A DNA stretch of 64,000 nt from an uncultured Maribellus sp. (GTDB lineage Bacteria; Bacteroidota; Bacteroidia; Bacteroidales; Prolixibacteraceae), in NCBI GenBank assembly GCA_964476535.1, contig CAYZBC010000001.1, positions 4,788 through 68,787 on the forward strand, written 5' to 3'. Below, piece after piece: positions 8,619 through 25,735 of the stretch (the stretch's first letter is position 1; every line of letters starts with the position of its first letter). Made by a program: the position numbers and the translations under genes. The notes under the pieces were generated by a model. The model had not been told where the DNA came from and ran no database searches. It was given only the letters and a program-made list of their open reading frames with translations.

Positions 8619-9080
8619 TTATTCGGGTTTATATCCAGTATCTTCAGGTAAATTTTGACCAAATGAAGCTTCCACCGCCAGCTCGTCGCAACGTTCGTTT
8701 AGGGGATTGTTTGCATGCCCTTTTACCCATACAAATTTAACCAAGTGTTTTTTATAAATCTCAAGAAAACGCATCCACAAATCCGGGTTCTTTTTCCCCT
8801 TAAATCGTTTTTTTACCCAATTAAATACCCACCCTTTTGTAACCGAATCGGCAACATATTTCGAGTCGGTATAAACAGTAACATCGCAACCTTCTATTTT
8901 TAAGGTTTCTAAAGCAACAATAACGGCGAGTAATTCCATCCGGTTATTTGTAGTATGTTGGTAGCCTTGCGAAAGTTCTTTTCGGTGTTCACCAGAAAGC
9001 ATTACAATTCCGTAACCTCCCTTTCCCGGGTTTCCGCGTGCTGCACCATCAGTGTAAACTGTAATTTTGGGTCGGGTCAT
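8619..9080 (-). CDS. rnhA: Ribonuclease HI
   Basis: YTDGAARGNPG, TTNNRMEL, YTDSKYV, WVKGHA..NERCD motifs. Confidence 0.97.
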   Translation of the reverse strand: MTRPKITVYTDGAARGNPGKGGYGIVMLSGEHRKELSQGYQHTTNNRMELLAVIVALETLKIEGCDVTVYTDSKYVADSVTKGWVFNWVKKRFKGKKNPDLWMRFLEIYKKHLVKFVWVKGHANNPLNERCDELAVEASFGQNLPEDTGYKPE

Positions 9081-9085
9081 TTTTA

Positions 9086-9120
9086 TAGTAATTAGTAATT
9101 AGTACAAAGTAGTTAGTAAA
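9086..9120. repeat. Period-7 intergenic tandem repeat
   Basis: TAGTAAT TAGTAAT TAGTACA AAGTAGT TAGTAAA read directly from the sequence. Confidence 0.7.
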
Positions 9121-9158
9121 ATCCTAGAAAAACAAACTATAAATCTAATTGTCGTCAT

Positions 9159-9187
9159 AAAAAAACCCCGCCAAATCTGACGGGGTT
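9159..9187 (-). terminator. Rho-independent terminator of the S46 peptidase gene
   Basis: Minus strand: AACCCCGTCA-GATT-TGGCGGGGTT (10 bp with one G-U) followed by a U run. Confidence 0.85.
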
Positions 9188-9209
9188 GAAATATAAGAAA
9201 ATTAAATTC

Positions 9210-11363
9210 TTACTGTACAATTTTCATTTCGTCGATTAAATGAGTAGCACCTGCATAGGTATCAATAACCCAAAGCACAAACCGAATGTCAACATTAATA
9301 CAACGTTGCAAGTCAGGTTCAAAAGCAATGTCGCCACTCATTGCTTCCCAGTTTCCATCGAATGCAATTCCAATTAATTCGCCTTTCGCATTAATAACAG
9401 GACTGCCCGAATTTCCTCCGGTAATGTCGTTGTTGGTAATAAAACAAGCGTGCAACGATCCATCTTTATCGGCATATTTACCAAAGTCCTTTGCAGTCAA
9501 TAATTCTTTCATTCTTGAAGGAACATCGAATTCTGTGTCACCTGGAATTTCTTTTTCAATATAACCATCGGTTGTTGTATAATAATCATAAGTGACACCG
9601 TCGCGAGGCTCGTAATCCAAAACATTTCCATAAGTTAAACGCATGGTTGAATTAGCATCCGGGTAAAAGCTTTTTTCCTTGTCCATCTCGATTAAACCTG
9701 CCACAAAAAGTCTTCTCCCTTTCAATAAATTATCGGTAGTTTTTCCTGCTATTTTGCCGATCTCACGCAGTTTCGAAAATACATCTCCAGCAGCTTGCAC
9801 GGCCATATCTTTTTTCAACACTTTTAATGACGGGTTTTTCAGAAAAGCTTCTAATTCTTCTTGATTATCAAAAACCGATTTGGCAAACATCTTCTCGGCA
9901 AATTTAGAGAAATCGCCTTTGTATTTCTTTTGAACAGTTTCAAAAAATGCCGGATAAAATTTGGCATTATTATTTTCTGAATAAAGTTTCATTAACTCTC
10001 CAGCAATTTTTTTGTCGGTTACAGCATCGTAATCTTTAAAATATTCATCCATCGAACCTTTAATCCTTTCAACAATACGGTCAATTTTATCCTTATTTTC
10101 TTCGGGTTTTTCCAACAAGCTAATTAATGATTTTGCACGGTAAGCAAACATGAAAATTTCCGGGCCACGCATTAAAGCTTCAGAAATGTATTCTAGCGCC
10201 CGACTTGCCTCCGAATCAATATAAGAATTTTCGATTAATTTTAAAGCTTCGCCATATTTTTCTTTGCGTGAATTATCGGCATTCACCCAACTTGTAAATT
10301 CATTTTCCAACGCTTTTTTCTTATCAATTACATTTAAGTTTTTTAAACCATTATTTTGACCAATACTGTATTTGTAATAATTCGAACTACGGGCATATTT
10401 CGACGAATATTGAATTCTCGCTTTAGGGCTGGTTTTCATATATTCACCAATAATTTCGAGCTTTTTCTCACGAACTTCAACACGAACCGGGTTGGTAACT
10501 TCCATTGTATAATTTACACCGTACGAAGTTTTGTATCGATTTGTTCTTCCCGGATATCCCATAATCATGGCAAAATCGCCCTTTTCAACACCTTTTAACG
10601 AAATGGGTAAAAAATGTTTTGGTTGGTAAGGAACATTTTCTTCTGAATAGCTGGCCGGTAAACCATCTGGTCCGCAATAAACGCGAAACATCGAAAAATC
10701 GTTGGTATGGCGTGGCCACATCCAATTGTCGGTGTCGCCACCAAATTTACCAAGTGCTTGTGGTGGTGCTCCAACTAAACGAATATCTTTGAATGTTTCT
10801 ACCACAAAAAGATAATATTTATTGTCGTTGAAAAAACTACGTACATAAGTTTCGTAATGTGTGTCGCCTTTTGCTTCTTTTTCTAAACTCCCAGAAACTT
10901 CGTTTATCTTTTCACTGCGTTCTTCTTCAGTAGATTCTGAAGTTACATCGGCAAGAACTTTTTCAGTTACATCTTCAATACGAACTAAAAAAGTAACTGT
11001 TTTGCCTGGGTTTGCCAACTCTTCTTCTCGCGACATGGCCCAAAATCCGTCTTGTAAATAATCGTGTTCAACACTCGAATGACTTTGAATTTCTCCAAAA
11101 CCACAGTGGTGATTTGTCAATAATAATCCGTCTTTCGAAATTAACTCTGCAGTACACGAACCATGATCCAATGCCACAACCGCATCTTTTAAACTCGAAT
11201 TATTGATGCTGTAAATATCTTCAGCACTTAATTCCAAACCGGCTTTCTGCATGTCGGCGATATTCAATTTATGAATCAAAGAAGGAAGCCACATCCCTTC
11301 ATCAGCCACTGCCGAACCAATAATAAACACGGTAAGGAGCAGTATTAAATTTAATTTTTTCAT
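9210..11363 (-). CDS. dpp7: S46 family dipeptidyl peptidase, DPP7-type
   Basis: DEGMW mature N-terminus, TNHHC, DNWMWPRH, TGGNSGSPV catalytic Ser. FDGNWEAMSGD has Gly at the S1 position as in DPP7 (DPP11 has FDR). Confidence 0.9.
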   Translation of the reverse strand: MKKLNLILLLTVFIIGSAVADEGMWLPSLIHKLNIADMQKAGLELSAEDIYSINNSSLKDAVVALDHGSCTAELISKDGLLLTNHHCGFGEIQSHSSVEHDYLQDGFWAMSREEELANPGKTVTFLVRIEDVTEKVLADVTSESTEEERSEKINEVSGSLEKEAKGDTHYETYVRSFFNDNKYYLFVVETFKDIRLVGAPPQALGKFGGDTDNWMWPRHTNDFSMFRVYCGPDGLPASYSEENVPYQPKHFLPISLKGVEKGDFAMIMGYPGRTNRYKTSYGVNYTMEVTNPVRVEVREKKLEIIGEYMKTSPKARIQYSSKYARSSNYYKYSIGQNNGLKNLNVIDKKKALENEFTSWVNADNSRKEKYGEALKLIENSYIDSEASRALEYISEALMRGPEIFMFAYRAKSLISLLEKPEENKDKIDRIVERIKGSMDEYFKDYDAVTDKKIAGELMKLYSENNNAKFYPAFFETVQKKYKGDFSKFAEKMFAKSVFDNQEELEAFLKNPSLKVLKKDMAVQAAGDVFSKLREIGKIAGKTTDNLLKGRRLFVAGLIEMDKEKSFYPDANSTMRLTYGNVLDYEPRDGVTYDYYTTTDGYIEKEIPGDTEFDVPSRMKELLTAKDFGKYADKDGSLHACFITNNDITGGNSGSPVINAKGELIGIAFDGNWEAMSGDIAFEPDLQRCINVDIRFVLWVIDTYAGATHLIDEMKIVQ

Positions 11364-18788: not shown

Positions 18789-21700
18789 TTACTTATAATT
18801 CAGATTGGTGGGCAGAAATTTCTCCACAAATGCAACCGTTTTTCCTTTTCGTTTTGCATAATCTTCAACCTGATCCTTGCCAATTTTTTCTAAACTGAAG
18901 TACCTCGATTCGGGATGTACAAAAAATTCTCCTGAAACCGATGCATTTGGATACATGGCAAAATGTTCGGTCAATGTAATTCCAACGTCTTCTGCTTTTA
19001 ATAATTTGAAGAGATTTTCTTTTTCTGAATGTTCGGGGCACGCTGGATAACCTAGTGCCGGGCGAATTCCCTGGTATTTAATTTTGAGTGTTTCGTCCAA
19101 CGAAAGATCTTCATTTGGTGCGTATCCCCAGTAATCTTTTCGAACCTGCAGGTGAAGTAATTCCGCGAAAGCTTCACTCAAACGGTCGGCAAGTGCTTCC
19201 AGCATAATTGCTTTGTAATCGTTGTTTTCTGCGCGATACTGGTCTTTCCATTTTTCTATGCCAATTCCTCCGGTTGTAGCAAAACCGCCACAGTAATCTA
19301 TTTTACCCCATTCAATTGGTGCAACAAAATCGGAAAGGCAGAAGTTTGAAATTCCCTCCTTTTTCTTTTCCTGCTGACGAATGTGATAAAACCGACCAAT
19401 CTCATTTTGTCGTGTTTCATTTTCGTACATCACCACATCATCGCCATCGGCATTAGCAGGCCAGATTCCAAATACTGCATTGGCCTGCAGCATTTTCTTT
19501 TCGATTATTTCATCCAAAAATTCGTTGGCTTCGACGTATAGTTTTTTTGCAGCGTCGCCTTGTTTCTCGTCGTTAAAAATTTGTGGGAAATGCCCTTTTA
19601 AACCCCAGGTTATAAAAAAGAATGTCCAGTCGATGTATTTACGTAATTCTTCCAGTGGAAAATCAATAAGCTGTTTTACTCCAATAAAATTTGGTTTGTA
19701 AATGGGCGTATTATTCCAGTCTATTTTAAATTTATTTCTTTGGGCTTGCTCTAAAGTCAAATATTTTTTAGGTTTTCGATTCCCTTGAAATTTTCGAATC
19801 TCAGCATAATCATTTTTAACCGAATCAAGGTATTTTTGATTTTTTGCGATGAGGTTTGAAACCACATTTACTGCCAACGACGCATCTTTTACATGAATTA
19901 CGGGGGAAGAATATTCTTGTTCAATTTTAACAGCCGTATGAATTTTTGATGTTGTTGCCCCACCAATTAAAATGGGAATATTCAGTCCGCGACGCTCCAT
20001 TTCTTTCGCAACGTCAACCATAATTTCCAGCGATGGAGTAATCAAACCACTCAATCCAACTACATCCACGTTTTCTTTGATGGCAGTATCAATTATTTTT
20101 TCGGTGGGAACCATAACTCCTAAATCGATAATTTCGTAATTGTTACAAGCTAAAACAACGCCCACAATATTTTTTCCAATGTCGTGAACATCGCCTTTTA
20201 CCGTGGCCATCAATACTTTTTTCGCAGACGATACTGTATTGTATTTTGCTTTGTCGGCATCAATGAATGGAAGTAAAAAAGCCACCGCCTTTTTCATTAC
20301 ACGCGCCGATTTTATTACCTGTGGAAGGAACATTTTACCGGCTCCAAACAATCCACCAACTACATTCATCCCATCCATTAACGGACCTTCGATAATATCT
20401 AATGCCAGTTTATATTTTTTTACAGCTTCTGCCATATCTTCATCAATAAACTCGGGAAAACCTTTAACCAAAGCGTGTTGAATACGTTTTTCAAGGGGAA
20501 GTTCACGCCATTCGTTTTTACGCTCCACTTTTTTCCCATCCGATTTTACATTTTCAGCAAACTCGAGCATTTTCTCCGTTGCGTCAATTTTTCGGTTAAG
20601 AATTAAATCTTCTGTTTTTTCCAAAAGGTCTTTCGGGATTTCATCATAAATCTGAAGCATTCCAGGATTTACAATTCCCATGTCGAGTCCGGCTTTTATA
20701 GCATGAAAAAGAAATACAGAATGCATGGCCTCACGAACTGTATTGTTGCCCCGAAAAGAAAAAGAAATGTTGCTTATTCCACCGCTGGTTTTAGCATGAG
20801 GAAGATTTTCTTTTATCCATCGCACCGAATCAATAAAATCGATACCATAATTGCTATGTTCTTCCATTCCGGTACCGAGGATTAAAACGTTAGGGTCGAA
20901 AATAATATCTTGCGGAGGGAAGTTGACCTGTTCAGTAAGAATTTTATATGCCCGGCTACAAATCTCTTTGCGGCGCTCCAAATTATCGGCTTGCCCTACT
21001 TCGTCAAAAGCCATTACAACTACGGCTGCGCCAAAACGTTTTATCACTTTTGCCTGATGAATAAAACTCTCTTCACCCTCTTTTAAACTGATGGAATTTA
21101 CAATCGCTTTTCCCTGTAAACATTTTAATCCGGCTTCAATTACTTTCCACTTCGAAGAGTCGATCATTACCGGAAGTTTGGCAATGTCGGGTTCAGCCAT
21201 TAACATGTTCAGGAATTGTACCATCTCTTTTTCGGCATCCAACATTGCATCGTCCAGATTTACATCGATAATCTGTGCACCATCTTCAACCTGTGCTCGT
21301 GCGATTGAAAGTGCTTCTTCGTATTTTTCTTCGCGAATTAAGCGTGCAAATTTCCTTGACCCGGAAACATTGCACCGTTCACCAATATTTACGAAGTTGG
21401 TTTCTTCAGTTAAAGTAACAGGCTCCAGACCACTAAATTTTGTATTTGAATCAGCCTTATTTATTTGATGCGGTTTTGCTTTCTCTGCAATTTTTACAAA
21501 TTCACGAATGTGTGCCGGAGTAGTTCCGCAGCAACCACCAATTATATTTACAAAATTGTTGTCGAGATAATCTTGCAGATAACCGGTCATTATTTCCGGT
21601 GTTTCGTCGTATTCGCCAAACTGATTTGGCAAACCTGCATTTGGATGAGCGCTGATATGGAATGGTGCTTTTCGTGAAAGTTCTTTTACGTAGGGACGTA

Positions 21701-22454
21701 AATCGGACGCACCCAGTGAACAATTTAAACCAATACTTAGCAAGTCGACATGTGAAACAGAATTTAAAAAAGCTTCCAGTGTTTGTCCCGAAAGTGTTCT
21801 TCCGCTGGCATCGGTTATTGTTCCCGAAACCATAAGTGGAAGTTTAATGCTGCGTGCTTCCAATGCTTCCTCAACGGCAAAAATAGCTGCCTTGCCATTT
21901 AAGGTATCGAAAATAGTTTCAATAATAAGCAAATCAACACCGCCGTCTAAAAGTCCTTCAACTTGCTCGCGGTACGAAGTTTTTACTTCATCGAAAGTTA
22001 CTGCGCGATAACCAGGGTCGTTTACATCGGGCGAAAGTGAAAGTGTTTTATTTGTTGGCCCAAGTGAGCCCGCAACAAAACGAGGTTTCGCTGGATTTTG
22101 GGCAGTGAATTTATCCGCTACTTTTTTAGCAATCTCAGCTGAAGTTTTGTTTAATTCGTAAACAAATTCTTCGGTGCCATAATCGGCTTGCGAAATGGAG
22201 GTGGCATTAAAAGTGTTTGTTAAAAGAATGTCAGCCCCAGCCTCCAAATATTTGGTATGAATTTCGATAATAATATCAGGATTGGTAATTGATAAAATAT
22301 CGTTATTTCCTTTTAGGTCATGCGGAAAATCCTTAAACCGTTCTCCGTGGTACTCCGCCTGGGTTAATTTATATTCTTGAATTAAAGAACCCATTGCCCC
22401 GTCCATAACAAGCACGCGGGTAAGGAGTTCGTTGCGTATATCTTTTTTAATCAT
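18789..22454 (-). CDS. metH: Cobalamin-dependent methionine synthase
   Basis: DGAMGS, GLNC, GGCCGT Zn ligands, pterin domain IGERCNV, DVHDIG B12-binding motif, C-terminal activation domain ([10 protein letters not shown]). Confidence 0.98.
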
Positions 22455-22483
22455 TTATTATATTTTCTAATCTTCTGAATGAA

Positions 22484-22561
22484 TTCTGTGCATTCTCTGT
22501 GTCTTCTGCAATTAAAAATATAACCACAAAGTTGCACAAAGGATTCACAAAGTTAACAAAG
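22484..22561. repeat. Imperfect inverted array of CACA(A/G)AG heptamers between UPF0280 and metH
   Basis: CACAAAG at 22525, 22535, 22546 and AACAAAG at 22555; complementary TTCTGTG/CTCTGTG at 22484 and 22495. Confidence 0.7.
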
Positions 22562-22565
22562 AAGT

Positions 22566-23318
22566 TTACTTCAAAATTCTCATCTCATAATCTCCCCGAA
22601 TTGCAATCTTATCTTCACAAATAATTAAAAGCGAAAGAATTTCTGGATATTTTTCCGATTGTTTAATCACTTTCTCAACATCGTTTGGCGATTTTACTTT
22701 GTTCCCGAAGGCGGTTGCAAAAGCGTCGGCCAATAAAATATCCTCACAAACAACTACAACTGCATCCGCTTTTCCGTAACTTAGCGAAGGTCCAACTGTA
22801 CCAGCCGAAGTACAAATTCCAAGTTTCTTCTTATCAGCAGGAATCACCAATCCAATTCGTTCCGACAAAATAGATTCTCCAGCAAAAACGGAAAACACCA
22901 AATCATCTTTTAAAAGAACAAAAATATCACCACCGTTCTCTATAACCAATTCTTTAACCGAAAAGTTCTGAATAATTTCTTTTCCCACTTCCCGGGCAAA
23001 TAATCCTGCAACCGCCGACATAGGTCCAATCCCCGCATTTTCGGCTGCGGCTGCCATTTCAATTGCTTCTAAAGGTGCAAAGCCAGAGGATTGAAAAGGT
23101 TTTAGGCTTTTTTTAAAGAACGGTTCTACTTTAATGTATTCATCGAATCTGTTGCGTAAACTTTTTATTTTCGCAAGTGCAAGTTCTTTTATTTCGGGTC
23201 GAAATGAAACCGTGTCAATGCCAATCCATAAATCGGTTTCCAGATAACTTATTTCAAAGCCTGTAAAACGTTCAGTGTTAAATTGGGTTCGATATGTTCT
23301 TTCTTCAAATAAATTCAT
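22566..23318 (-). CDS. UPF0280/COG2122 (ApbE-like) protein, homologue of the sulfide-assimilation protein MA1715
   Basis: GPMSAVAG, ENGGDI, GICTSAGTVGPSLSYGKADAV, LADAFATA motifs; lies next to the COG1900 and NIL-ferredoxin genes. Confidence 0.88.
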   Translation of the reverse strand: MNLFEERTYRTQFNTERFTGFEISYLETDLWIGIDTVSFRPEIKELALAKIKSLRNRFDEYIKVEPFFKKSLKPFQSSGFAPLEAIEMAAAAENAGIGPMSAVAGLFAREVGKEIIQNFSVKELVIENGGDIFVLLKDDLVFSVFAGESILSERIGLVIPADKKKLGICTSAGTVGPSLSYGKADAVVVVCEDILLADAFATAFGNKVKSPNDVEKVIKQSEKYPEILSLLIICEDKIAIRGDYEMRILK

Positions 23319-23385
23319 CTTTATACTAAATGGTATTATACCGAAAGGTATAAAATCAGTTTAAAAATTTAGATAGCTTCATGAC

Positions 23386-23507
23386 GGGAAACTCTAAAAA
23401 TAGGAAAATTCAAGGCGTAAGTAAATTTAAACACCGGAGTTTACTTTTGTAAATGAGGATTTTAAATTTACGAAACAACGCAGAAGCTTTCATTTTTAGA
23501 GCTTACC
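23386..23507. repeat. About 120-bp nested palindromic (MITE/REP-like) element
   Basis: Nested inverted repeats CTCTAAAAAT/ATTTTTAGAG (23392/23492), GCGT/ACGC, GTAAATTTAAA/TTTAAATTTAC (23421/23461), TTTAC-TTTT-GTAAA (23440-23453). Confidence 0.75.
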
Positions 23508-23913
23508 TAAAATCAATTTCAAACAAATTTAAAGGGCAGGCAGGAATACACAATTCACAAACTACACATTTGTCTTTGTCGAATTCCAGTTTCCAGGTCT
23601 CTTTGTTCATTGTTAATGAACCGGCAAAACATACGGCGGTACAATTCCCGCAATCAATACATTTTTCTTCATTTAAATGAATTCGTTTATCTAAGGGTTC
23701 ACAAGTAATCTGATTCTTCTGAAGGTACTTAACCCCGTTTTCAATGTTATCTTTTTTACCCTGGAGTTCAAGAAGCAGGCTACCTCGTTTTCCTGGGTAA
23801 ACTTCCGCTTTCAAAATATTTATGCGGATATCGTAATCTTTTACCAAATGGTAACTAAACGCTTTATCACCTCTATCGGGCGGGAAATTTAAGATGTATC
23901 TTTTTTTAATCAT
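23503..23913 (-). CDS. NIL domain plus 2x[4Fe-4S] ferredoxin (MA1822-like partner of homocysteine biosynthesis)
   Basis: INIL motif in an ACT-like N-domain; CIDCGNCTAVC and CVVCELCIPACP. Confidence 0.88.
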   Translation of the reverse strand: MIKKRYILNFPPDRGDKAFSYHLVKDYDIRINILKAEVYPGKRGSLLLELQGKKDNIENGVKYLQKNQITCEPLDKRIHLNEEKCIDCGNCTAVCFAGSLTMNKETWKLEFDKDKCVVCELCIPACPLNLFEIDFR

Positions 23914-25069
23914 TGTCGGCCTCCGTTTCTTTTAAACTTTTTAATGAGGTGTTTTGTGGAAACATTTGAACAGGTTTACTAATTTCAAAATTTCCCGACT
24001 GCAACCATTCTTTTAATTCGTTGGCAATCTTTCTGGCTTTCGAAAGGCTGGCAACTGGCGCAGTACGAATTTTCTTTCCATTCACTTTAATAAAACCCGA
24101 TTGAAGTTCTTTATATGAAACCTGTCCTAACTTTGGTGTTCCATTTGTTCCGTAATCGAGTACCGAAGTTTCAATCTGACTGTTATTTATAGAAACTCTT
24201 TTTGCTATTTCAACATCTAGAATTGGGATTGGGATTCCGATTCCCACAAACATACTTACGCCATATTTTTCGAAATAAGCTGCCTGAATATAATCTGCCG
24301 ACATTTCTTTTAAATTCCCAATAACAGCAATTGTAGCTGCGTTTGTAACCGGAACACCAAGTTCGTTTTTTGGCTTTGTTGTGTGGAATTGAGTACCCGG
24401 CCAAACTACAAAACCTTGTGTGCCACCCAGGAAAATACGTGTTCCCAAACCAATTGTTTTGAATTCGGGGTCGTTTAACAATGGGCTTAACTCACCGGAG
24501 GTAGAATAGGTTGCATTTCGCAAATTTGGGAGTAAAGTCCCCATGTACGTGTGAATCATTTTTTTAGTTGAATTCACGGCAACATTATAATTCTGATAGG
24601 CATTCCGCGGATTAAAAAGTGTAAATTCGTTTATCGTGTTTATATTAATTTTAGTGCGAATATGCTTGCGTGGATAACAATCGGTTCCTTTTCCCCATGC
24701 TTCCAGAATAACATCTTTCCCTTCCAGTAAATCCTGAATAACGTGTGCACCACCGTATTTCGGATTCTCAGGATCGCATGCTGTTGCTCCAATATAAGAA
24801 TCAACGGCTGCCAATCCCTCGTAACATGGTACGCCGTTTAATCTTATTTTTTCCATTCGAATGGGTGGGTTGGGATGACCAAAATTGATAATTGCACCGG
24901 ACGAACACATGGCACCAAAAGTTGCGGTAGTAACCACATCCACCTTTTCAACAATTTCTTCCGGCGATACGAGTAGCGCCATTTTCGAAACTTCCTCGGC
25001 GGTAAGTATTACTGCTTTACCCGATTTCAATTTCTGGTTAATTTCTTCGTAGGTTTTTATTTTTGACAT
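23906..25069 (-). CDS. L-aspartate semialdehyde sulfurtransferase (COG1900/DUF39, MA1821-like homocysteine biosynthesis protein), without CBS domains
   Basis: VDVVTTATFGAMCSSG, GLAAVDSYIGAT, YGGAHVI, GTDCYPR, FNPRNAYQNY, GELSPLLNDP, GTRIFLGG motifs. Confidence 0.9.
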   Translation of the reverse strand: MSKIKTYEEINQKLKSGKAVILTAEEVSKMALLVSPEEIVEKVDVVTTATFGAMCSSGAIINFGHPNPPIRMEKIRLNGVPCYEGLAAVDSYIGATACDPENPKYGGAHVIQDLLEGKDVILEAWGKGTDCYPRKHIRTKININTINEFTLFNPRNAYQNYNVAVNSTKKMIHTYMGTLLPNLRNATYSTSGELSPLLNDPEFKTIGLGTRIFLGGTQGFVVWPGTQFHTTKPKNELGVPVTNAATIAVIGNLKEMSADYIQAAYFEKYGVSMFVGIGIPIPILDVEIAKRVSINNSQIETSVLDYGTNGTPKLGQVSYKELQSGFIKVNGKKIRTAPVASLSKARKIANELKEWLQSGNFEISKPVQMFPQNTSLKSLKETEADND

Positions 25070-25184
25070 TTTTCAATAAATTTCATGTTATAAAAATTAG
25101 TTGGACGACGGAAGCCGGAAGTAAAAAAAGTGTAAGCCGAAAATCTGGTCATCCACAAATCTAATTATCTCTCAATCATAATAG

Positions 25185-25280
25185 TTACATTTTAAAAAGC
25201 GGTAAAAACCGCCAGTGCATACACATATTTGCCCCATGCATATAACTTACTAAAAATAATCTGTACAGTTGTTTTTTCAT
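25185..25280 (-). CDS. Putative Met/Cys-rich leader peptide (31 aa)
   Basis: MKKQLYRLFLVSYMHGANMCMHWRFLPLFKM. Starts about 13 nt after the riboswitch P1 and overlaps a terminator-like hairpin. Confidence 0.5.
   Translation of the reverse strand: MKKQLYRLFLVSYMHGANMCMHWRFLPLFKM
25194..25213 (-). terminator. Attenuator-like terminator in the methionine operon leader
   Basis: Minus strand GGCGGT-TTTT-ACCGCT then TTTT; short 6-bp stem. Confidence 0.45.
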
Positions 25281-25292
25281 GATTGTGTTCAA

Positions 25293-25393
25293 ATTATAAT
25301 TCCGTTTCCGGCCGGGTATTGGCACCTTTCCCTTTTGTCCCGGTTGGTTGCCAGAGCTTCTCAGAGCCCGCTCTCTTCACTCTTCTATATAAT
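25293..25393 (-). ncRNA. SAM-I (S-box) riboswitch
   Basis: P1 ATTAT/ATAAT; kink-turn region GAGAG-CGGG-CTCTGAGAAG; GGCAACC...AGGTGCCAA core; pseudoknot CGGG/CCCG (compensatory relative to canonical CUGG/CCAG); short P4 CCG-GAAA-CGG. Lies upstream of methionine genes. Confidence 0.92.
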
Positions 25394-25518
25394 CAAACAC
25401 TCTTTAGAGAAAGAATATTTGATACGCTTCAAATTTAATCGAAAATGCTTAATTTCAAATATTTTTAGGTCAGTACTTTTAAAACGTTAAGATTCATTTA
25501 TAATTTCAATAATTTTGC

Positions 25519-25609: not shown

Positions 25610-25684
<75 letters not shown>

Positions 25685-25690
25685 AAACTG

Positions 25691-25735
25691 AAAAAGAGGA
25701 TGTTACAACAATTATGTGTAGCCGCCTCTTTTTTT
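25691..25735 (+). terminator. Terminator-like hairpin after the tRNA
   Basis: AAAAAGAGG...CCTCTTTTT arms followed by a U run; long irregular loop. Confidence 0.5.

Follow-up and report, generated by a model that had tools for sequence, protein, structure and literature searches.

A SAM-I riboswitch joined to a conserved Met/Cys leader open reading frame ahead of methionine-synthesis genes in Prolixibacteraceae: a candidate two-input leader

In the present study, a composite 5' leader was observed ahead of a methionine-synthesis operon on the minus strand of a 64,000-nt stretch of DNA from an uncultured Maribellus sp. (contig CAYZBC010000001.1, positions 4,788 to 68,787; this whole stretch is hereafter called the window). 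In this leader, an aptamer of the SAM-I (S-box) class, named for S-adenosylmethionine (SAM), is followed by a short open reading frame (ORF) with a conserved Met-Cys-Met motif. Herein, we propose that the riboswitch acts on this short, sensory ORF and not directly on the enzyme gene, and that the leader would have two inputs, SAM and charged Met- and Cys-tRNA. From sequence comparison, we give this proposal roughly an even chance, two-input control being a plausible reading of the arrangement. The usual view is that a riboswitch acts directly on the terminator or the start site of the gene it regulates; here, a widespread class appears to have been rewired onto a sensory mini-ORF, and one leader would integrate SAM with the pool of charged tRNA and amino acids.

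SAM-I aptamer and start of the leader

A scan of the window with Rfam returned exactly one riboswitch and no family other than SAM-I, and no other family was found at a relaxed threshold in the loci and spacers of three relatives (L083, L090 and L097). The aptamer lies at 25291..25395 (RF00162; score 61.6 bits, gathering threshold 44.4, E 7e-12, model positions 1-108; all coordinates refer to the minus strand of the window unless noted), the covariance-model match is full length over the four-helix junction, and the aptamers of the relatives scored 54.7-63.2 bits. Its location is that of the class, 5' of the genes for HcyBio, a NIL-ferredoxin and MetH in the window and upstream of metH in L090 and L097. 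Judged by this match, the aptamer claimed in a first-pass annotation of this DNA is a bona fide SAM-I element, the binding of SAM itself being predicted. The leader ORF (25185..25280; MKKQLYRLFLVSYMHGANMCMHWRFLPLFKM) has 31 codons and a TAA stop, with the ATG at 25280-25278 and the stop at 25187-25185, and it contains five Met codons, as the annotation, which named no strand, had stated. The ORF also starts just after the closing helix P1, at a distance of 10 nt from the Rfam end of P1 and not of about 13 nt.

Helix P1 is extended by GUGUU (25396..25400) pairing with AACAC (25289-25285), the latter strand (25285..25289) ending 4 nt before the leader AUG. Across the relatives, this extension of 5 pairs in two helices is 90.5% and 95.1% paired, and its outermost pair covaries on both sides, 35 sequences having G-C and 16 having U-A there. 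Moreover, the leader AUG lies 2-7 nt 3' of the extension in 69 of 71 sequences, with a mode of 4 nt. No terminator was found between P1 and the leader ATG in the window, in line with the annotation, which had seen no other clear terminator after the aptamer. An expression platform of this kind, in which a P1-adjacent terminator is absent and the P1 extension lies near the conserved AUG of the leader ORF and not near that of the enzyme gene, fits start-site occlusion.

Sixteen HcyBio loci form a short class without ORF or spacer, in which the aptamer and a retained GAACACAATCAT lie 11-37 nt from the HcyBio AUG. These loci appear to have cleanly lost the ORF and spacer and, because they place the same aptamer directly at the HcyBio start, they suggest that the aptamer would control whichever AUG adjoins it. 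SAM binding most likely shuts off leader translation, a function that we infer from geometry and comparison; the gating of leader translation raised in the annotation fits both the short distance from the P1 extension to the leader AUG and the abutment of the short-class aptamer on the HcyBio AUG. Sister species that have lost the module provide natural, ready-made controls, and the approximately 78 homologues offer a mutational map. In one locus, L048 (~2705-2800), an insertion of approximately 90 nt with a different 28-codon ORF (MKRVYSYKIQKLTGQQRVPCDSLENKHF) separates the aptamer from the conserved leader ORF. The P1 extension is thereby moved away from the leader AUG, and this locus may represent a natural case of uncoupling.

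Distribution of the leader ORF

When one genome per species was scanned with the HcyBio protein, 80 loci were obtained, all from Prolixibacteraceae or close relatives (genera Draconibacterium, Maribellus, Mariniphaga and Tangfeifania), and a SAM-I aptamer was present at most 450 nt upstream in 65 of them. Fourteen of the 15 aptamer-less loci were scanned with Rfam and showed SAM-I nowhere in the fetched locus; the fifteenth, L002, is without upstream sequence. The 65 aptamer loci consist of the short class and of 49 loci with a gap of 117-385 nt to HcyBio, and all of these 49 except L062 have an ATG-initiated homologous ORF. Counting also the truncated L050 and the window, the leader ORF is carried by 50 of the 80 genome loci. 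An aptamer-anchored DNA pattern search of metagenome contigs gave 29 further copies; the ORF is intact in 28 of these contigs, and in two (L090 and L097) it stands ahead of metH and not of HcyBio. The leader ORF is thus found 5' of two different methionine genes. The ORF of L090 is one base out of frame with its ATG, which reflects either a genuine frameshift or a fault in the assembly.

The first-pass annotation had staked its reading on the conservation of the ORF and its Met/Cys cluster after homologous SAM-I elements, and this conservation was borne out in approximately 78 loci, with a protein-coding substitution pattern. As far as sampled, the arrangement of riboswitch and leader is confined to Prolixibacteraceae. 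A regular expression for the peptide matched once per locus and only at the leader position (576 kb, six frames), and none of six versions of the leader peptide was found in a collection of 15 billion proteins. The ORF is 21-25 codons long in most relatives; that of the window reads 6 codons further because the usual stop, which lies in a hairpin loop, has been lost (TAA to TTA).

Of the aptamer-less HcyBio loci, 14 that are mostly Mariniphaga-like (L011, L025, L044, L046, L047, L051, L056-L061, L071 and L078) have no SAM-I within 3 kb, and most of them have a TAnnTTTG promoter box approximately 30-40 nt before the HcyBio ATG. The regulation of HcyBio appears to be evolutionarily labile, since three states are seen: no switch, a direct switch, and a switch with a leader ORF.

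Coding signature and Met-Cys-Met motif

The substitution pattern of the leader ORF is that of a coding region, and by this measure the ORF is not a product of chance. The ratio of nonsynonymous to synonymous differences (pN/pS) is 0.32 in frame compared with 0.78 and 1.18 off frame (17 gap-free codons, 71 sequences), and in-frame stops occur in 0 of the 71 sequences compared with 36 and 21 in the other two frames. In addition, the entropy by codon position in the 46 unique sequences is 0.74, 0.51 and 1.04, the third position being the most variable, and AGY and UCU codons are both used at a conserved Ser.

The consensus of the peptide is M-K-K-x4-L-F-[FL]-x-S-[YF]-[ML]-[HY]-[GF]-[AS]-N-M-C-M. 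Its conserved part in the window is S-Y-M-H-G-A-N-M-C-M (residues 12-21; 25218..25247), which reads S-[YF]-M-[HY]-[GF]-[AS]-N-M-C-M in the relatives. Among the unique sequences, the final Met is present in 46/46, Cys at -1 in 42/46, Met at -2 in 38/46, Asn at -3 in 44/46, His or Tyr at -6 in 46/46 and Ser at -9 in 37/46. The codons AUG UGU AUG for Met-Cys-Met (25218..25226), the last of which is invariant, are the proposed stall site. Met or Cys occupies 200 of the 213 last three codons up to the invariant Met, against a background of 2.8% (the share of Met and Cys among the residues of the long ORFs of the window), and three consecutive Met/Cys codons at any one place have a probability of approximately 2e-5. 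Two features of an attenuator-type leader are present, namely a conserved short ORF with a start and a stop 5' of biosynthetic genes and an enrichment in codons for the regulated amino acids.

In 64 of 71 sequences, the invariant Met lies 20-21 codons from the start codon, and the stop follows that Met after 0 codons in 3 sequences, 1 codon in 28, 4 codons in 36 and 6-12 codons in 4. Since the position of the stop floats, the decisive event would occur at or before the invariant Met and not at termination. The same floating end bears on another explanation, in which the ORF is simply the first cistron and encodes a micro-protein acting in trans, which might, for instance, assist HcyBio or MetH by binding a metal or a cofactor. 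The peptide is indeed conserved, its His, Cys and Met are potential ligand-binding residues, and it is always co-transcribed with methionine enzymes. However, a C-terminus left unconstrained over 0 to 12 residues past the invariant Met, a 21-residue product with no recognisable fold or membrane segment, and the clean deletion of the ORF in sister species that retain the riboswitch on HcyBio all speak against such a function, which would also leave the SAM control of HcyBio unexplained. We consider this explanation very improbable.

A different reading of the same motif is nascent-peptide arrest, in which the conserved C-terminal 10-13 residues would stall the ribosome at the final Met from within the exit tunnel, either intrinsically or in dependence on a small molecule of the pathway (Met, homocysteine, S-adenosylhomocysteine or a cofactor), Met and Cys then being part of an arrest motif and not hunger codons. 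Analogues would be TnaC with Trp, SpeFL with ornithine and the plant CGS1 with SAM. In keeping with arrest, a 10-residue motif that ends at the invariant Met is under purifying selection, stalling itself being proposed. Moreover, amino-acid identity is selected at non-sulfur positions, with both AGY and UCU at Ser, synonymous variation at Ala/Ser, Gly and Asn, and an invariant His/Tyr; the chain is of nearly fixed length at the final Met (20-21 residues in those 64 sequences) and would lie wholly within the tunnel, and the tail past Met is free to vary or to be absent. On the other hand, the enrichment in Met and Cys fits the products of the pathway too well to be incidental, no resemblance to known arrest peptides was recognised, without a sequence comparison, and the stop codon is at no fixed distance, unlike that of TnaC and SpeFL. 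Furthermore, an arrest induced by the end product would have to repress a biosynthetic operon, which is the opposite of the known bacterial cases. Arrest in place of hunger codons is unlikely in our estimate, although it is the main rival of two-input control. It is also rather unlikely, if conceivable, that S-[YF]-M-[HY]-[GF]-[AS]-N-M-C-M is a true nascent-chain sensor, either of a sulfur/methionine small molecule or through hypersensitivity to Met-tRNA, in series with a licensing SAM-I element. If so, sensor and aptamer would constitute an RNA/peptide AND gate and a bacterial counterpart of the SAM-responsive CGS1 arrest peptide of plants.

Hairpins at the proposed stall site

Two possible hairpins overlap or follow the motif. 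The first, H1 (25218..25242; UAUGCAU / GUGUAUG with an 11-nt loop), lies within the ORF, and 93% of its cells are paired in the 71 sequences. All changes in H1 are one-sided and wobble-compatible, and no compensatory change was found in these sequences; the existence of H1 is unproven because codon constraints alone could give the same pattern. The second, H2 (25194..25213; (G)GCGGU-UUUU-ACCGC(U) followed by a U-tract), has a predicted energy of -8.7 kcal/mol (z -3.8) and consists of GCGGT at 25212-25208, a TTTT loop, ACCGC at 25203-25199 and T5 at 25198-25194, as described in the annotation. In the Draconibacterium/Maribellus clade, H2 was found in 40 sequences and in every one of them starts exactly 5 nt past the last Met codon, the leader stop codon usually sits in its loop in this clade, and a compensatory GCGC/GCGC stem is present in L055 and L095. 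H2 is degenerate in the two closest relatives of the window (L001 and L003), and in a second clade it is absent or shifted from this position while the peptide motif persists.

These structures are the basis of an explanation with no second input, in which the ORF is a pure relay: any translation of the leader would pass on the state of the riboswitch (through anti-Rho action or antitermination, reinitiation or standby), and the apparent conservation of the peptide would stem from the overlapping RNA structures H1 and H2. The pairing of the H1 arms, the conservation of H2 at the nucleotide level with its compensatory variant, and the near invariance of the nucleotides of AAAUUAUUU within one clade agree with this explanation, and precedents exist in an upstream ORF controlled by a B12 riboswitch in M. 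tuberculosis (PMC11260477) and in a distant SAM-II switch in S. meliloti (PMC9373788). However, pN/pS is low only in frame, and wobble positions vary most, including those of the H1 loop and of the upstream codons outside the proposed helices. Moreover, H1 lacks compensatory changes, and the peptide motif persists both where H2 is absent, in the second clade, and where it is eroded, in the closest relatives of the window. A pure relay is therefore judged improbable.

The annotation had also taken H2 for an attenuator hairpin. In such a classical attenuator, GCGGU/ACCGC-U5 would be a terminator whose formation is prevented by a ribosome stalled at Met-Cys-Met, in agreement with the U5 and the predicted energy of the hairpin in the window and with the 5-nt spacing, such that H2 would be melted once the ribosome moved one codon beyond the stall site. 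However, a ribosome terminating at the usual stop in the loop would melt H2 as well, so that stalling would not be needed for read-through. The window has U5 after H2, but at least three U directly 3' of the hairpin were seen in no more than 7 of the 42 relatives, and for this reason H2 is not a general intrinsic terminator. The degenerate hairpins of L001 and L003 and the second clade, with no hairpin at this position, do not bear out this part of the annotation either, and the antiterminator alternative that an attenuator requires was not detectable. A simple terminator scan of the window did not call H2; our guess is that the extra G-U pair, when counted, leaves only four T in the tail window. 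A look for RNA runs from the organism of the window found none; metatranscriptome contigs from a close relative span the aptamer, leader, spacer and HcyBio, which shows only that read-through RNA exists. We regard a classical attenuator as quite improbable, and H2 as a real, clade-specific element coupled to the proposed stall site and not a general terminator; as a weak H2-U5 terminator, it may contribute in the window. Together, the relay, the classical attenuator and the micro-protein are less likely than two-input control or peptide arrest.

From the leader to the operon

Herein, the following sequence of events is proposed for two-input control. At high SAM, P1 and its 5-bp extension would close and end 4 nt 5' of the leader AUG, within the footprint of an initiating 30S subunit. 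Bacteroidota initiate translation without Shine-Dalgarno pairing, and in such an organism the closed extension should block translation of the leader. At low SAM, the leader would be translated and, approximately 20 codons in, the ribosome would reach the Asn-Met-Cys-Met that ends the 10-residue motif. When Met- or Cys-tRNA is scarce, the ribosome would pause at Met-Cys-Met, possibly with help from the conserved nascent chain. In the least certain step, a ribosome held on the leader would keep transcription or expression of HcyBio, the ferredoxin and metH going, and an untranslated or quickly cleared leader would lead to premature termination through Rho or, in the window, partly at GCGGU/ACCGC-U5. 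The net logic would be OFF at high SAM and ON at low SAM, with the strongest expression when sulfur amino acids are also short.

Several structural candidates for the link between leader and operon were rejected. A classical four-segment attenuator was rejected as a general mechanism: when duplexes between the Met-Cys-Met region and each spacer were compared with shuffles, the mean z was +0.47, with only 1 of 44 (L023) below -2. An anti-P1 helix was also considered, but the AAAUUAU (Lys-Leu-Phe) codons complement the 3' strand of P1 in one clade only, the helix being absent in the second. Reinitiation is argued against by the length of the stop-to-start spacer, which varies from 33 nt to several hundred nt among the relatives. 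With the classical solutions eliminated, a structure-independent link is favoured, and by elimination we favour Rho-dependent termination or decay of the naked leader RNA, blocked while ribosomes occupy the leader.

Several points weigh against control by SAM and charged tRNA as proposed here. First, the conserved residues of the motif include non-sulfur residues (Ser, Tyr/Phe, His/Tyr, Gly/Phe, Ala/Ser and Asn), a conservation that pure hunger-codon leaders do not usually need, and the L063-L065 variants (NRFM) retain only the final Met of the cluster. Second, starvation for Met also limits the charging of initiator tRNA, which complicates the sensing of Met by elongation. Third, none of the structural links sought between leader and operon was found: the U-tract after H2 is limited to the few relatives given above, and the spacers hold no conserved complement of the Met-Cys-Met region. 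A model in which a stalled or terminating ribosome uncovers the HcyBio start was rejected, the predicted unpaired fraction being 0.58, 0.57 and 0.58 (partition function with ribosome masks, n=46), and a Rho utilization (rut)-like C>G skew in the spacer or in the 5' half of the ORF was weak, similar to that of a control region and uninformative. Finally, SAM binding, translation of the leader and stalling are all deduced from the DNA.

Relation to known leaders

No prior description of a SAM-I aptamer coupled to a conserved leader peptide was found in the full-text literature, in keeping with the annotation, which had known of no such composite. As far as found, the combination of SAM-I with a Met/Cys leader ORF is new, and control by a riboswitch plus a leader ORF as such is already known. 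The metE leader of Bacillus clausii has tandem SAM-I and adenosylcobalamin riboswitches. It resembles the present leader in the two-input control of a methionine gene from a SAM aptamer; there, however, the second sensor is an aptamer, and here it would be a translated peptide ORF. The mgtA leader of Salmonella joins a Mg2+ riboswitch to mgtL, an ORF with proline codons, and its premature termination is thought to be Rho-dependent. As in mgtA, one leader joins an RNA that senses a metabolite or ion to a short translated ORF whose codons would report a second signal. Unlike mgtA, the present leader has a SAM-I aptamer and Met/Cys in place of Pro and belongs to another phylum; its ORF starts just past the closing helix, the riboswitch appears to gate initiation, and no alternative stem-loops were found. 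Tandem attenuators are present in the related Salmonella mgtCBR (PMC3641672).

In M. tuberculosis, a B12 riboswitch is a translational OFF switch on an upstream ORF needed for ppe2 expression (PMC11260477). The present leader likewise combines a riboswitch with an upstream ORF, with the gating deduced and the co-occurrence, geometry and coding signature observed. In the ppe2 case, the coupling is by termination-reinitiation at short range, without reported sensory codons (PMC11260477), whereas here the spacer measures 33 nt to several hundred nt and the Met/Cys motif is conserved. Long-range control from a SAM aptamer is also known from the S. meliloti metA SAM-II switch, which acts 74 nt from the start codon; unlike here, no peptide is made there from AUG1 (PMC9373788).

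Short ORFs rich in codons for the product of the pathway, 5' of biosynthetic genes, are shared with trpL, hisL and the Corynebacterium ilvB upstream ORF (PMC11109978). Unlike in those leaders, no conserved U-tract terminator and no detectable antiterminator are present here, and an upstream riboswitch would control access to the ORF. A predicted metL leader of S. lividans (MSTTSDRTPATEATTTPGARCMCRRMCAF, ending ...ARCMCRRMCAF) lies upstream of metNIQ without a typical terminator (PMC8079986), and in mycobacterial poly-Cys leaderless small-ORF attenuators, stalled ribosomes control downstream translation (10.1101/834739). Both have Met/Cys or Cys codons near the C-terminus of a short ORF 5' of sulfur-amino-acid genes, as here, and both, unlike here, are leaderless and lack a riboswitch. 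The mechanism of the mycobacterial attenuators, the unmasking of a sequestered ribosome-binding site, was modelled for the present leader and was not supported. As far as found, the leader peptide described herein would be the first conserved Met/Cys leader peptide outside Actinobacteria and would be among the very few elements resembling attenuators that have been described in Bacteroidota. To our knowledge, T-boxes are absent from Bacteroidota.

Promoter, operon and neighbouring elements

The consensus of the -7 promoter box of Bacteroidota is TAnnTTTG, and a putative box of this kind, TAAATTTG (25430..25437), can be read approximately 30 nt 5' of the aptamer. In the relatives, a conserved block ATCAAATATTCTT comes after the -7 box, and riboswitch-less HcyBio loci also have TAAATTTG-like boxes upstream. 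A divergent tRNA gene with the anticodon CAU lies at 25610-25684 on the plus strand, approximately 215 nt upstream of the riboswitch; it was called tRNA-Met and could also be tRNA-Ile2. A tRNA gene (anticodon not checked) is present at the equivalent upstream position in the riboswitch-less loci L025 and L061. After the CAU tRNA, at approximately 25690-25730, a canonical hairpin with T7 was observed, which indicates that ordinary U-tract terminators are in use in the genome of the window.

The first regulated gene (23906..25069; E 7e-147) encodes HcyBio (PF01837), a sulfur-incorporating enzyme of homocysteine synthesis, which also partially matches the 'methanogenesis marker 16' model. The remaining operon genes (18789..23913) were assigned by domain or profile matches and encode, in order, a NIL-domain/2x[4Fe-4S] ferredoxin (23913-23503), a 250-aa PRK04334-like protein (23318-22566) and the B12-dependent methionine synthase MetH (22454-18789). 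The 250-aa protein (22566-23318) is without a Pfam domain and matches the NCBIfam 'hypothetical protein' PRK04334 (E 3e-69, under the curated cut-off); it is possibly an uncharacterised partner in the sulfide-dependent homocysteine pathway.

In the window, a 115-nt spacer separates the stop of the leader ORF from HcyBio. It contains a variable hairpin, H3 (25102..25155; GGAUGAC...GUCGUCC), whose 3' side carries CU-rich CUUCCG repeats. The sequence of H3 is not conserved and nothing in the spacers is conserved across both clades, and the predicted folds of the relatives' spacers are somewhat more stable than those of shuffled sequences (mean z -1.2, n=37). Two to three tandem CU-rich units (CUUCCGACUU / CUUCCAACUU) lie just upstream of the HcyBio start, at 25100-25125 in the window, and are also seen in the spacers of L010, L012, L015, L017, L022, L028, L029, L041 and L049. 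These units are the 3' arm of the variable hairpin, the 5' arm being GAAGAC/GAAGAUGA, and could be a ribosome landing pad, a Rho site or a site for a protein or small RNA.

Other elements of the spacers are limited to certain loci. A REP-like (repetitive extragenic palindrome) element (…AAGCCCCTCTAAATCTCCCC-NNN-GGGGAGACTT…) directly follows the leader stop in L063, L065, L074, L080, L082 and L106 of the second clade. In L083, an insertion of approximately 480 nt between the leader ORF and HcyBio (~8740-9270, locus coordinates) carries imperfect repeats of approximately 45 nt (…ATTTCTTTAAGACAATCGTTCATTTCC…), and the aptamer and the leader ORF are intact despite the insertion. The metH-linked L090 and L097 share the stretch GAACCGAATGTCCCT(A/G)AGATTGTT…GGGA between the leader ORF and metH, which can form a hairpin and matched no Rfam family at E 0.1 or better. 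Downstream of the operon, matches to Acido-Lenti-1 RNA (RF01687) barely over the gathering score were observed on the minus strand in L001 (5140-5184) and L011 (6791-6835). The organism of the window occurs only in salt-lake metagenomes.

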